A DNA stretch of 64,000 nucleotides from a virus, in the UHGV virus genome UHGV-0134996; one strand, 5' to 3'. Position 1 is the first letter of the stretch. The number at the start of each line of letters is the position of its first letter. A program made the position numbers. Of this stretch, positions 6,001 through 12,000 are shown in pieces.

Positions 6001-9000
6001 GCTGTGACAACTATTGTTGATGGCATTGAGACAGCGGATAGCCTCGATAAAAAGGCGCTGGCGGCATTGAAAGATGCGGTAGACCTGGTAAGGCAATCGA
6101 AGGAGTCAGGCCAGCATATTACCGATGTTATTGCTCAGGGGGATATGTTCAGCGAAACGGCCCCGGAAGTGAAAGCACTCGCGTTGTTCATCGTCGCGAA
6201 TAACCGTAGCGCGAAGCGTATGGCCACCGCCTTTAAGTTGATGGCTCAACGTATCAATGATGAGTTACAGCACCAGGGCCAGGCGCTGGGGGATATGTTT
6301 GGCGGTGGTGATGTGTCGTTACAGGATATCCTTCGCCAGGTGTCTCAGGAACTGGAAAACGAAGGCATGCAAGGGATATCCGGCGGTCTTTTCGAGTCCG
6401 TTTCCGGCGGTAGTTACAATGGTGTTGCTCCATATACCAGTTTGCTATTACATCGGGCATCCGGCATCAAAGACATTATTCATCTGATCAGGCTGCTTTC
6501 CCGTACAGATCCCCAGGATGAACAGCTTGTACAAGTGCTTGCGCATTTTGTTCGAATGCCTGTTGCCGACGTGAAAAAATGGTGCCGATTATTCGGTATC
6601 AGCAATTCGTTACTTCGCGGCTTGTTAAATCACGCATCCTCCCTTGGGCGCGATGGCTTTGACGAGATAGCGCAGGCGATAAAAAACGGAGATATGCCAC
6701 CAGCTATTGACTGGTTTTCCATTCGCCCAACCAGGGTGAAAGCATTCCTTAGCGCGGCGCATTCGGCATCACCATTGGCAGAAATGGTTCAGAGGTTGTC
6801 GCTCATATTCACAGACCATACCGCGTTGGGTGATCTGACTCTGGACGAGATGAAAGAAGCCTCCATTCAGTGGGCCGATCAACAAAATGAGGTTAACTCT
6901 GACTTCTTGCCAGCATTCAGGAAGGCCGTTAGTAAAGCTGATGATGCCCGTGGAATTCTGAGGGCATTTAAGGCATTGCAAAGTCAGGTTAATAAACATG
7001 TCGGTGATATCGATGGGGTAACGGCGGAAGGCAGGGATATCCTTAAAGAGCACGGCATAACGCCAGAGTTTATTGATGAGATCAGGACTGATATGCAGCG
7101 TGAGGTCGTATCGTCCCTGCAAATCGTAGCCAGAGCGTTGGCGGATGCTAATCCGAAGAGTGCGGCCATTGTTAACCGTGTTATTGGTGATATTGAAGCA
7201 TCGGAGGGCATGGGGGCGCTGAAACTCTTCCTTTCGCGAGCGTTTAATCCTAACGGCAATATTCTCCCCGGCATTATTGGTGAGGCTAAAAAGTATGTCA
7301 GCGAAGAAGAACTTGAGCATCTTGACCAACTACTTAAGCGATTCTCATATAACCCGCAGACACGCTGGCAAATGAATCAGCAAAGTATGGGTTCGGTCCA
7401 CGAGAAAGTGTTATCTGCCATGAACAGTGCGATCGCCAACTCATCCGTATCTGAAGAAAAAGCTCTTGAGTGGGCCGACTCTTTTATCACGGAAGAAGTG
7501 GAAGAAGCCCGCGCTGGACAGAATGGTGGGATAGACCTGCGCAAGGAACTTGCTGATATTTATCGCCTGACCGGCGGTAAAATTTCGACCTTATCAAAGG
7601 TGGTTCACCACCAGGGAAGGGCATATGCAAATATTAATGGTGTTGTTGCTGTCAATTTGAACGATGAAAATGCAAGTGCACTGTGGCACGAGCTGGGTCA
7701 TCATCTTGAGTACAGTAACCCTGGTTTGTTAGAGAAAGCCCGGTCATTCCTGAAGGCCAATGTTGAAGGGGATAAGCCATCTTTCGTTAATATCGGTGGG
7801 CGTGGCAAGCCTGAATGGTGCTTCAGATCTCGATTGAGTAATATTTATATGGCGAAGGTATACCCGCCAGCCTCAGTAAGTAACACCGGGAAAATTCGGC
7901 AGAAATCACCGACTATTTCCAAAACGTCAGCAACGGAAGTATTCTCTATGGCTCTTCAGTTGTATCATGACAAAGAGGCCGCTGCCGCATCACTGATGAA
8001 TGGTGACGGATTGCTGGAACTGTTATTAGGTGTGGCAAAGGAGCTAAATAATGCAGATTAAAATCGCAGCGCCATTAGGCGGAGATGCCATTATCGAATT
8101 TGATGATAATGAAGAAGTTTCCGGGCGTTTAAGCATTATCTCCGGTGACATTACCGAGGACATGATCGCTGAAGCCATAGCTGGGGCAAATCCCAATAGC
8201 TATATGGGATTCGTTAACACCCTTGATGCTCCCGCAAGTGATGTTCTCCGAACGCTGCATCTTTACGCTGGCTGGTTTGTTGATTGGCCAGCAGTAGATG
8301 GTGGCGATGAGGACGACGACGACGATGATTTTGGTGATCATGTAGACCAGATCGTATATTGAAGAAATCCCGCCAATTGGCGGGATTTTTACCTCACGAG
8401 AAACTCTTTTCTGATGTCAGCCAACAGTGCTCGTGCATATCTCTTGGTGGTTTTTCGACAAATGCCTCTTCAGCCACATCCTGCCAGGGGATTTGTTTAG
8501 CCCATTCAGTTATAGCGTTATGGTTTGCCGAGAATAACGGTATTGTATAGGCCTTCAGCCAGTCTAATGTGCTGGAGTTGTGTTTTTGAGCGTGATGTTT
8601 CGCATGGTGTTTGGCGATCACGATCGTAGGCACTACCCATTTACTACCGTCAGTCATTGTGAAGTGCATATTACGGGGAACAGATGACTTTTCCATCAAC
8701 TCCCGAATCCCGGGGAATTTCCCCAAGATCAATCGGCGATATTCATCGCTATTGCGCCCACCAAACTCTTTGGCTTTGAATTCAAGATATGCTTCAGAAA
8801 CGAGAGGTGAATCCTCTGTGTTTAGAGTTATCGCCGTGAAAAAACCAGCAGGATTGTTTTTACTATGGGCCAACCGGTGATGCGAATCATAAAAGTACCC
8901 TTTCTCGCGTTCCGATGGTTTCGACAGCAACAGCAGGCGCGAGTCATAATTGGTTAAATTGCCAGTTATCACTGCATGAGCGCGATCGCTGATTTCCGCC

Positions 9001-12000
9001 GAGTTAATAACGATGAAAAGATCGTGCGGTCCAGTAAAACCAGCCAGAGACTCTTCGTTATTCAGACAATAGGTTATATAGACGCATCCCCATGTTTCAC
9101 TGATATGCACCAACCCTTTGTCAGGGTGTATTCTGAAATAATTGCCAAGAAAAGGGTGTTTTTGGGTAACTCGCTCCCAATAACGGAACATATAGTCAAT
9201 TATTGTTTTTCGACAATCGTTAATCGCAGGAGAAACAACCACTGTACGGGAACACGAATACAGTATTGTTTGCAGGATGCTAATCACTGCCACAATAGAG
9301 GTTTCCCCAATACCATGTGGTGTGGTGGCAGTGATTTTGGCTCCGGTGTTCTTTATCGCGTTAATAATTTTTGCTTGATGAGGTGTTAACTCAATATCAA
9401 GCAACTCTTTTGCTGCCAGTTCCCAATTGTCTTTATACCGTTCTATCAGTGCTAACCAGGCAGATTCATTCTGTATACGATTAATCACTTTCCACCTCTT
9501 CCGTGGTGTTTTCTTGCAGTTCTGTTAATGCAGCACGACATAGGTTCCGGGCATTGGCTATAGCCACACTTTTGACTTCATCCGTCATCGTGCAGGTAAT
9601 GTACTGATCGAGTTCTTCAGCGCGGATGATGCTTTTGCCAATCAGAAACTGTATTTGCCATAGCAGATCGGCATCCATAATCAGAATTTCTGCCGGGCCT
9701 TCAGGGCCAGCCGGGAAGGAAACATAAGACTGTTTGCCCAGGCCGACAACTCGACAACTTGCTTCAAGAATTGCGCGCTTGAGGTCTGACTTTATAACGG
9801 AAACAGGTTGATTTTCACCAGTGATTACGCCGTTGACATGGAAAGGCATGTAGCTTGAAATACGCTCTACTTTCCACACGCCAGCAAGCGATCCTTCATG
9901 CAGCACAATGGGGGTAACCGCGAGTTTCATCTCACCATATAACTGCTGGCAGATAGCTGGATTGCTGAATACATCTAAAGGCTCACATTCAAACAGCTGC
10001 GCAATCTGCATGAGGTCCATCATGGTCATCCCTGGGGTACGAGCAGTAATGAATTTGCGCATACCAGTATCCATTGCGCTCCAGATTGCTACACCATGCT
10101 TTTTGCTCACTTCTTCAGTAAAGCCAAGGTGGCACATGATGGTTTTTTCGATAGCCAGATCAGAGATAGAAACCTTTTCGCCAGGTACTCCATCATTATT
10201 GATGGTCACTTCGACACTCTGGCCATTACGTAGGCGGTATTGAATGGTTTTAGTATTTTGTGCTGTCATAGTCTTTTCTCTGCTTAAAAACTGATGTATT
10301 GCGTCTTCAGGTGGGTTAGGAATGTTTTCCCACCAGCGAAAGCAATATCTCGTGGTGTTCTGTTCGTTAAAAACGCGTGCCATTGCCAACTTTGGCGTTT
10401 TTTAGCGAGTTCGTGCTTTTGTTGGCGTTTGGACCACCGCTTTTCTTTCAGTCGTTTTTTACTCATAAACTCTAAAACGGAATATCGTCTTCAAAGTCCA
10501 TTGGAGGTTCGTTATTGGCGCTGCTCTGAGGTTTGCCGCCACCGCTGTATTGCTGGTGGTTTTGAGGTTGGTTTGACTGCCCCCAGCCATTTGAGGACTG
10601 TGAATCGTCGCGGCGAGTGCCGATCATTTGCATGGTGCCGCCCTGGCTGACGATAATTTCCGTCGTGTAACGTTCTACACCGGCGTCATCAGTCCACTTA
10701 CGGGTTTTAAGTTTCCCTTCGATGTAGACCTGAGAACCTTTTCGTAAATACTCACTCGCAATTTCAGCAAGTTTTCCGAACAAAACGACTTTATGCCATT
10801 CTGTTTGCTCTTTCTGTTGGCCCGTTTGCTTATCGCGCCATGATTCATTCGTTGCGATGCTGAGTCTTCCGACTGCGCCGCCATTTGGTATATACCTGAT
10901 CTCCGGGTCTTGCCCCAGGGTACCAATCAGGATGACTTTGTTTACACCGCGTTGTGCCACTTTTCTTACCTAATAAAATAAATTAATTAGAGCAATAATG
11001 TATATCTTTGAAACGTGGCTAACAAGTGATTTGCATTATCCTGTGCCTTCTAAAGGGATCGAGTCAGTCGGTATTGGCTGTGAATGAGTGTTTGTCCTGG
11101 AGCGTAAAAAATTCGCTTATGAGGTCTTTATGAAGGGAAAAACAGCCGCAGGAGGCGGTGCAATTTGCGCTATCGCGGTGATGATTACCATCGTGATGGG
11201 TAATGGCAATGTGCGAACCAACCAGGCGGGGCTTGAGCTGATTGGTAACGCTGAAGGTTGCCGACGTGATCCATACATGTGCCCGGCAGGGGTATGGACT
11301 GACGGGATCGGTAATACACACGGGGTAACGCCGGGTGTGCGAAAAACAGACCAGCAAATCGCCGCTGATTGGGAAAAGAATATCCTGATCGCTGAACGCT
11401 GTATTAATCAGCACTTCCGGGGCAAAGACATGCCCGATAATGCCTTCAGTGCAATGACAAGCGCGGCATTCAGTATGGGATGCAATAGCTTACGGACCTA
11501 CTACAGCAAAGCGCGAGGCATGCGAGTAGAAACGTCCATCCACAAGTGGGCGCAGAAAGGGGAATGGGTGAATATGTGTAACCATCTCCCTGATTTCGTG
11601 AACAGTAACGGCGTGCCCCTGCGAGGTTTAAAGATTCGCCGTGAAAAAGAACGCCAGCTTTGCCTGACGGGGCTTGTCAATGAATAAACTCCGGCAGCTC
11701 CGCCGACTTTCGACAATGAAGTTATCGCTGGCGGCGATAGTTTTTGACTCGATTTTCATGGCGGTATATGTGCTCAATGAGACGTGGCCACTGGAACCGC
11801 TATTGTATGCCGGGCTTCGGCTGTGCCTGACATTTTTGAGCATGGCTGCGAGATTGATGCAGCAGAAAGAAACCGCTTCAGATTGTCCACGCCGCGCGGT
11901 GCGCAAATATATGGCACGAAGGCGAAGGCGATAATAGTTAACGAGAACCCCGGCAGCTGCCGGGGTTATTTTTGGTGGTTATTTAAACGGATTGATTGAA

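Follow-up and report, generated by a model that had tools for sequence, protein, structure and literature searches.

The 64,000-nt stretch of viral genome UHGV-0134996 analysed here (the window) is a P1-like phage-plasmid, and in addition to pacB, which encodes the large subunit of its terminase, it carries a second gene of the PacB lineage, orf364. Comparative sequence analysis supports, with good confidence, the view that the orf364 product is a PacB-derived pseudo-ATPase fused to a small domain with a family of its own. It is also held with good confidence that the gene is optional cargo in an early operon and is maintained by selection. As the terminase fold appears to have been kept while its chemistry was lost, the protein probably acts by binding a partner and not by packaging DNA. 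The preferred reading, tentatively held at a probability of about one in three, is that orf364 serves in counter-defence against terminase-sensing immunity of the Avs type. The stretch from 8394 to 10389, which comprises orf364 and its upstream partner, is 100% identical to Escherichia coli SA186 plasmid NZ_CP022733.1.

BLASTP aligned residues 11-272 of orf364 with residues 11-274 of PacB at 35% identity (94/266; 176 bits; E=5e-55) with six gapped positions. This confirms the claim of an initial annotation that the 364-aa product is collinear with the N-terminal ATPase half of PacB, and disposes of the possibility, raised there, that the similarity is not significant. The LLLLS.P....GYFYD.HH.LA block singled out in that annotation is present in the alignment, where RLLLLSKPSEREKGYFYDSHHRLA of orf364 lies against an equivalent stretch of 23 residues in PacB. 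Nothing in orf364 corresponds to the nuclease half of PacB (residues ~275-494), the protein stopping before this domain as had been stated. Both proteins belong to phrog_5902 (2.6e-187 for orf364), and both match phrog_2, 'terminase large subunit' (4.3e-9 for orf364 and 2.9e-40 for PacB). A search of the window with a hidden Markov model (HMM) of the family found only these two genes, while 749 homologs of orf364 were recovered at E<=1e-3, mostly terminases of 460-580 aa. Therefore, orf364 contains a domain homologous in sequence to the ASCE ATPase domain of TerL proteins of the PacB type, and it lacks the RNase-H-like C-terminal nuclease domain. It is also not adjacent to pacA, lying 26 kb from pacA-pacB (35349..38026), and in all 13 orf364-type loci the gene upstream is isaA, not pacA. 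The judgement that orf364 is not standard packaging machinery thus stands, as this PacB paralog is an accessory gene outside the pacA-pacB operon. Both orf364 and pacB are on the minus strand, a point on which the initial annotation was silent.

Though the Walker A region is included in the alignment, as previously reported, the motif itself has been destroyed. GHGTGKS in PacB corresponds to PHGIGET (K62E) in orf364, which no longer fits the pattern GxxxxGK[ST]. Among 22 live PacB-type sequences this Lys is invariant (100%), and in a clade of dead relatives of orf364 its place is taken by E, R, H, T, M, I or C. Walker B and the catalytic Glu read IIDEAS in PacB and VINSAE in orf364, with the Asp-Glu pair changed to Ile-Asn; the pattern of hhhhD followed by Glu is thereby lost (FIVINS vs YIIDEA), while in the live clade D is conserved at 95% and E at 100%. 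The coupling motif has likewise degenerated, from SQPT in PacB to SKPS in orf364, and across the dead clade Q and T (95-100% in live sequences) are lost and S and P kept. Judged by its sequence, orf364 is not an ATPase, its inactivity being predicted from the motif loss. The 'ATPase' label given to it must be withdrawn, since the loss extends from the Lys of Walker A and the Asp-Glu of Walker B to the SQPT(R) coupling motif, in orf364 and throughout its clade.

The extent of this clade was surveyed among the 150 best of the 749 matches, which came from an exhaustive phmmer search of 1.84 billion cluster representatives. GK[ST] together with DE/EE was found in 122 of the 150, the complete ones being mostly 460-580-aa terminases, while in 16 the Lys of Walker A and/or the Asp-Glu of Walker B are missing, in nearly all of them both. 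None of these 16 motif-dead homologs has the nuclease half; they measure 230-268 aa and 364-366 aa, with single proteins of 438 and 444 aa and a few shorter fragments. The dead group was also checked at 48 columns that are at least 85% conserved in the 22 live PacB-type terminases. It keeps the structural columns Q38, G59, G61, E146, A149-G150, S189, P191, G197, F199 and H204, as well as S227-P228, G243-G244, Y250, G256 and F258. The columns that it has lost are the Ser, Gly, Thr and Lys of Walker A, the Asp, Glu and Ser of Walker B and, in the coupling motif, Q, T and R. In a neighbour-joining (NJ) tree on Kimura distances over the ATPase region, which is a distance tree and not a maximum-likelihood one, 12 dead sequences (ten cluster representatives, the orf364 of the window and P0001, a relative 96% identical to it) fall together in a single clade at a bootstrap of 92/100, and its sister is the P1 PacB lineage. 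The monophyly of the dead sequences points to a single ancient inactivation, followed by diversification to ~30% identity. One further sequence, P0064, falls outside the dead clade and may represent an independent loss. No description of orf364 or of any inactivated terminase paralog was found in the literature searched. Searching the PDB by sequence, whether with orf364 or with a profile of the clade, returned nothing useful, the sole match being the P-loop of the aquarius helicase (E=0.05).

Residues 262-364 of orf364 are not a remnant of the nuclease but are homologous to a widespread family of standalone phage proteins. A profile built from four sequences recovered 119 homologs of this C-terminal domain, nearly all of them standalone proteins of 90-125 aa, from Enterobacteriaceae, Acinetobacter, Pseudomonas, Brevibacillus and Chloroflexi. 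In the reverse direction, an HMM of 116 family members matched the window's orf364 at E=7e-29, and the profile match covers the whole ~100-aa domain. Positions 407-501 of phrog_17928 also match it (E=1.6e-13). No precomputed Pfam domain is listed for these homologs, and direct Pfam scans of two members found nothing; neither did Pfam, NCBIfam and PADLOC scans give a significant match for orf364, for the domain or for IsaA, the product of the upstream gene. The standalone members are acidic, with a median isoelectric point (pI) of 4.4 and a net charge of about -11. The fused copy in orf364 is neutral and departs from a near-invariant NNMNW (here QIPW) and NG (here TS). Standalone genes of this family lie directly downstream of a DnaB-type helicase gene in lambdoid prophages, in a Salmonella P1-like contig and in Cronobacter phage JK004, and in Xanthomonas phage Tenjo the domain ends a 471-aa protein encoded near genes for a recombinase, an exonuclease and a single-stranded DNA-binding protein (SSB).

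A second arrangement of the two domains is seen in P0048, a metagenomic protein of 246 aa that is probably cut at the contig end, in which the small domain comes first and is followed by a dead terminase ATPase domain whose P-loop is degenerate (GSGTGTT). Given this swapped order, the small domain and a dead ATPase have been joined at least twice, and their joining in different orders argues for a functional link between them. The domain also draws attention to an abundant, uncharacterised family of ~100-aa acidic early proteins whose fold is predicted with confidence and for which no solved or characterised relative was found. Within the dead clade, P0033 (444 aa) carries a different, unrelated C-terminal extension of ~180 aa in place of the small domain, for which Pfam gave only a faint match to DUF7686.

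All eight further orf364 copies examined (seven viral loci and MH422554) are intact open reading frames (ORFs). Against the most divergent close copy (L015; 61 substitutions), the ratio of nonsynonymous to synonymous substitution rates (dN/dS) is 0.27 overall, 0.32 in the ATPase-like part and 0.12 in the C-terminal domain. By this comparison orf364 is under purifying selection, at a dN/dS of about 0.3, and the intact ORFs and the dN/dS together rule out a pseudogene. In addition, the pairing of isaA and orf364 has been kept across ~50% amino-acid divergence, in two lineages and at different genome positions.

The upstream partner, initially described as an unknown 264-aa protein, is isaA of phage P1. 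Positions 9465-11000 of the window are 95% identical in DNA to P1 isaA-ssb, so that identity and position agree, and the isaA homolog matches phrog_2326 at 5.8e-149. The length of 264 aa is that of most relatives, while the protein has 262 aa here, counted from the conserved ATG at 10269 to which the start codons of distant IsaA homologs correspond. The end of the region at 10389, given in the initial annotation, falls on an unconserved upstream TTG that would yield 302 aa and is not retained. P1 IsaA is annotated at 320 aa; its N-terminal extension is unconserved and is broken by a stop codon in the window. The spacer between ssb and isaA (10270-10471) is overlapped by a basic 60-aa ORF at 10284..10466, which is probably spurious. 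IsaA is acidic (pI 5.0), with many invariant Gly, Pro, Arg and Cys positions. Its predicted model is of low confidence overall (predicted local distance difference test score, pLDDT, of 60) and is confident only in a core at residues ~35-115, where an alpha-beta-beta-beta-alpha arrangement resembles double-stranded RNA-binding domains. A relationship of IsaA to Tad2 was rejected, as its top fold match, 1r7l, is not among the solved relatives of a Tad2-like protein encoded beside it in some elements, and sequence similarity to that neighbour is likewise absent. Knock-down of P1 isaA and isaB by CRISPR interference found both to be non-essential (PMC10695390), in a phage that lacks orf364.

Counting from a C1 repressor operator, the order on the minus strand is operator, ssb, isaA and orf364 (Table 1). 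The isaA stop codon TAA (9481-9483) overlaps the orf364 GTG start (9486-9488) inside GTGATTAA, and a GAGGTGG Shine-Dalgarno sequence lies just 5' of the GTG. A simple scan found no terminator-like site on the minus strand between ssb and the end of the isaA-orf364 pair. With up to three mismatches to the C1 operator consensus, the window has 13 sites against 0.29 expected by chance, including 10980-10996, 32277-32293, 35329-35345 and 50238-50254. The site upstream of ssb occupies the same position as the operator annotated in P1 and P7, and the P1 annotation shows corresponding ssb promoters with their operator. Given the C1 operator, the P1 annotation of ssb, the lack of a terminator-like site and the translational coupling, ssb-isaA-orf364 is probably one early, repressor-controlled transcript. 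The co-transcription of orf364 with its partner proposed earlier is to that extent backed, by sequence alone, through the stop/start overlap, the Shine-Dalgarno sequence and the uninterrupted interval. Another of the operator matches, 35329-35345, lies directly downstream of pacB.

Table 1. Coordinates in the window of orf364, its domains, its operon and the terminase genes.
Feature	Position	Strand	Description
orf364	8394..9488	minus	ORF; 364 aa + stop, GTG start; PacB-derived, catalytically degenerate, terminase-ATPase-like (predicted)
N-terminal TerL-ATPase-like domain of orf364, dead motifs	8706..9488	minus	aa 1-261; from alignments and motif table over 150 homologs
C-terminal ~100-aa domain of orf364	8397..8705	minus	aa 262-364; relatives are standalone ~100-aa phage proteins
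isaA homolog	9481..10269	minus	262 aa; upstream partner of orf364, translationally coupled
GC-rich hairpin AAATCCCGCCAATTGGCGGGATTT + T-run	8365..8390		between convergent hxr and orf364 stops; read from sequence
ssb	10472..10960	minus	ORF; leads presumed ssb-isaA-orf364 operon; P1 annotation: ssb, promoters P1ssb/P2ssb
C1 repressor operator (P1 Op21/Ossb)	10980..10996	minus	upstream of ssb; 1 mismatch to consensus ATTGCTCTAATAAATTT
pacB	35349..36833	minus	ORF, 494 aa; functional terminase large subunit, parent lineage of orf364; GHGTGKS + IIDEAS intact
pacA	36833..38026		adjoins pacB

The operon occupies part of the interval between ssb and hxr, which is the published variable region RD-2 of P1-like plasmids (PMC6906374, PMC9603915). 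On the other side, this slot is flanked by the anti-restriction operon hxr-ddrB-ddrA-darA, whose hxr-ddrB end converges on orf364. The hairpin at 8365-8390 was not listed by the simple terminator scan; it is a probable bidirectional terminator and forms one edge of the orf364 indel. The presence or absence of the gene is a clean ~1.09-kb indel from this hairpin to the isaA stop, and in plasmids without orf364 (L090, L091) the isaA stop directly adjoins the same hairpin. The GC content of orf364 is 44.0%, against 48.7% for the window.

Reference P1, P7 and D6 have no orf364, so that the search for the same pair in P1 and its relatives, as had been proposed, comes out negative for these phages. 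Nor is orf364 a conserved P1 gene of known function, as the slot in reference P1 holds an unrelated 201-aa isaB and IS1. The possibility that orf364 is P1 isaB split by IS1 was rejected by direct alignment, in which window positions 8361-9464 have no counterpart in reference P1, and the best BLASTP match between orf364 and P1 IsaB (gp020, 201 aa) has an E-value of 0.82. In P7 (L094 3155-4270), the slot adjoining ssb contains the porin gene nmpC and no isaA; the slot therefore takes unrelated cargo. A survey of 5,426 complete E. coli genomes found isaA-type DNA in 335 and orf364 in 100; each of the 100 covers the whole isaA-orf364 pair, so that none has orf364 but not isaA. The gene is also found in 120 PLSDB plasmids, including those of Salmonella, Klebsiella and Shigella. 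Only three of 50,697 deposited phage genomes contain it, under the label 'terminase large subunit' or 'hypothetical protein'.

In another P1-like element, at a different place, there is a second lineage of the pair, with about 48% identity in IsaA and about 52% in the orf364 counterpart (orf368). There, the order is c1, a Cre-like integrase gene, a dUTPase gene, a Tad2-like gene, isaA and orf368, followed by convergent doc-phd. Some E. coli P1-type plasmids likewise have a Tad2-like gene between ssb and isaA, with orf364 either present or absent. Between the two lineages, the Tad2-like protein (220-225 aa) shows 78% identity. Its last 90 residues match solved Tad2 and AcrIIA7 structures (E=7e-20) and the Pfam Tad2-like family, and they are preceded by an uncharacterised N-terminal extension of ~135 aa. 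Copies directly upstream of isaA are found at L091 4296-4973, L095 4377-5054 and L003 5332-5994, the window itself having none, and the gene is present in 213 of the 5,426 E. coli genomes. According to a preprint, Tad2 occurs in 56% of P1-group and 93% of D6-group phage-plasmids, and Dar/Ddr is universal (bioRxiv 10.1101/2025.09.12.675607). Tad2, isaA and orf364 thus have a module and an early accessory context in common in two lineages, though neither orf364 nor IsaA is homologous to Tad2/AcrIIA7 (DUF2829). Tad2 is also a nucleotide sponge, while nothing suggests that orf364 binds signalling nucleotides.

The initial annotation had offered a decoy, a regulator of packaging, or an exclusion or defense function as roles for orf364, and among these the gene neighbourhood favours counter-defence. 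It is preferred because expression should be early and under C1 control, and because linkage with Tad2 and Dar recurs. In outline, a copy of the PacB ATPase domain would have lost the nuclease half and the catalytic residues, kept its fold and gained the small C-terminal domain. The protein would be produced together with IsaA from the ssb operon at the onset of lytic growth, a timing suggested by the presumed repression of this operon by C1. It would then work by stoichiometric binding, involving neither ATP hydrolysis nor DNA cleavage, and expose a surface resembling that of a terminase to a partner whose normal ligand is the terminase ATPase domain. The likeliest candidate for this partner is a host immune sensor of large terminases, of the Avs or antiviral STAND (signal transduction ATPases with numerous domains) type. 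In that case, orf364 would be a decoy or blocker acting in counter-defence, encoded in one module with the Tad2 anti-Thoeris sponge and beside the Dar anti-restriction operon. The sensing of large terminases by Avs1-3 is established, as cited in two papers (PMC13581612, PMC11564622). A more elaborate version is rather doubtful: phages and phage-plasmids would carry a dedicated family of inactivated terminase-ATPase mimics, produced early as harmless copies of their own molecular pattern, which would blind or titrate Avs1-3 or other host receptors of the conserved terminase fold while the small domain or IsaA kept these receptors from oligomerising.

Several observations weigh against the counter-defence reading. 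Avs3 is reported in a preprint to read the active-site residues of the terminase and its bound ATP (bioRxiv 10.1101/2024.10.15.618418, citing Gao 2022); as orf364 has lost the active-site features and the nuclease domain, it may escape Avs3 recognition. A terminase look-alike made early could also trigger a sensor instead of blocking it. The defence HMMs of PADLOC-DB v2 gave no match at E<=1 for orf364, IsaA, Hxr or a standalone C-domain protein, and the standalone relatives of the C-terminal domain lie beside replication genes, not beside known anti-defence genes. Furthermore, the pair is not obligate, since about 235 of the 335 E. coli genomes with isaA have no orf364, and hotspots of this kind hold defence genes and other cargo, such as P7 nmpC, besides anti-defence genes.

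The first rival to counter-defence keeps orf364 within DNA packaging. By competing with PacB for a binding partner (PacA, PacB oligomers or the portal), the dead PacB-like domain would delay, limit or tune pac cleavage and headful packaging. Its descent from the PacB lineage, as the sister clade, would suit such a role, as would the many conserved non-catalytic positions that it retains, including an N-terminal W..L...Y..W..AA block and GYFYDSHH. The PacB allele of the window is also 100% identical in orf364-bearing contigs (L010/L063, L012/L051, L015/L058) and in many P1-like loci, so that one target would fit all, and satellites are known to block a terminase by binding a partner (Ppi, Rpp). 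However, the gene is optional: reference P1, P7 and D6 package normally without it, and it is found in only 100 of the 335 isaA-bearing E. coli genomes. It is also far from pacA-pacB, in an early operon, while P1 pacA-pacB are regarded as late genes, and it travels with Tad2 and IsaA, not with packaging genes. On balance, packaging regulation is unlikely, though less so than the other rivals.

Competition between phages, or superinfection exclusion, is a good deal less probable. Here, orf364, with or without IsaA, would poison the terminase of incoming or co-resident phages, as a dominant-negative subunit or as a sink for the small subunit. In its favour, dead subunits are classic poisons of ring ATPases, and the GC content of orf364 is below that of the backbone. 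The gene is also carried as accessory cargo by a temperate element, at a hotspot (PMC6906374, PMC9603915). Yet the C1 operator upstream implies that the operon should be silent in the lysogen, the very state in which exclusion would have to act. Moreover, orf364 is no closer to its own PacB (35%) than to other PacB-type terminases and hence has no obvious means of discriminating self from non-self, and the PADLOC scans gave no matches.

It is similarly improbable, if not slightly more so, that orf364 is an accessory to replication or recombination, in which case the C-terminal domain, and hence the fusion, would act at replication or recombination intermediates and the terminase-like part would be a scaffold only. 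The placement of standalone C-domain genes downstream of DnaB-type helicase genes, the Tenjo fusion near recombinase, exonuclease and SSB genes, and the position of orf364 behind ssb are all in line with this, and the C-terminal domain is the most constrained part of the protein (dN/dS 0.12). Adjacency to replication genes is nevertheless weak evidence, because regions behind them (nin-type) are general dumping grounds for accessory genes. The strong acidity of the standalone proteins is also unlike that of DNA-binding proteins, and the fold of the domain offers no characterised relative for guidance. Finally, a functionless, decaying remnant of a duplicated pacB, to which the vanished catalytic motifs, the missing nuclease half and the many relatives that do without the gene might seem to point, is essentially excluded by the intact ORFs of all copies at a dN/dS of about 0.3, the diversification of a monophyletic clade to ~30% identity with the key positions of the fold kept, the gain and conservation of a second domain (in swapped order in P0048), and the translational coupling conserved in two lineages.

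Among known systems, the closest to orf364 is P1 PacB itself. The N-terminal ASCE ATPase fold is homologous (35% identity over ~265 aa, same PHROG), and the Q-motif, the LAG, GYFYD.HH, SPLV and YGG blocks and a domain boundary at G.FP are common to both. Unlike PacB, orf364 lacks the Walker A Lys, the Walker B Asp-Glu and the RNase-H-like nuclease, shows a degenerate coupling motif and ends in an additional, unrelated domain; moreover, it is not beside pacA, it belongs to an early C1-controlled operon and it is optional among relatives. Packaging ATPases of the phi29 gp16 type resemble orf364 in combining a terminase-family ATPase domain with a small C-terminal domain and no nuclease. However, phi29 gp16 is a catalytically active motor encoded with structural genes, whereas orf364 is accessory cargo without the catalytic residues, and its C-terminal domain comes from a standalone family and not from a vestigial nuclease. 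A possible analogy is offered by Ppi of Staphylococcus aureus pathogenicity islands (SaPIs) and Rpp of phage-inducible chromosomal islands (PICIs), which redirect or block packaging by non-enzymatic binding to a terminase component. These proteins are not terminase-derived and have no sequence or fold relation to orf364, which is encoded on the phage-plasmid itself and not on a satellite. Lastly, the isaA/isaB genes of P1 ('IS1-associated', RD-2) share with the window the upstream partner isaA and the same ssb-hxr slot (PMC6906374), while isaB is unrelated to orf364.

Of the hallmark proteins of tailed phages, none is more conserved than the large terminase, which is also a main target of the sensors of bacterial innate immunity. 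The dead clade is itself conserved and diversified, retains the fold without the catalytic residues and the nuclease, and travels with counter-defence genes, which suggests that the terminase fold has been recruited for a non-packaging role based on binding only. If this role is immune evasion or packaging interference, these proteins would be a new class of phage pseudo-enzyme, and the existence of natural isogenic P1-like elements with and without orf364 makes the role directly testable. The erroneous label 'terminase large subunit' can, moreover, mislead terminase-based phage classification and the prediction of packaging type.

Two further observations were made in related elements. On another P1-like viral contig (L077 893-1444), a 183-aa ORF resembling a truncated terminase N-terminus, with an acidic stretch in place of the P-loop, lies ~3.5 kb upstream of pacA; its neighbours are a putative transposase fragment and a putative actin-like (ParM-type) gene. 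In a P1-like plasmid of equine E. coli (L090 6088-7302), a gene for a TnpB/InsQ RNA-guided endonuclease is inserted between lyz and the head-processing gene.

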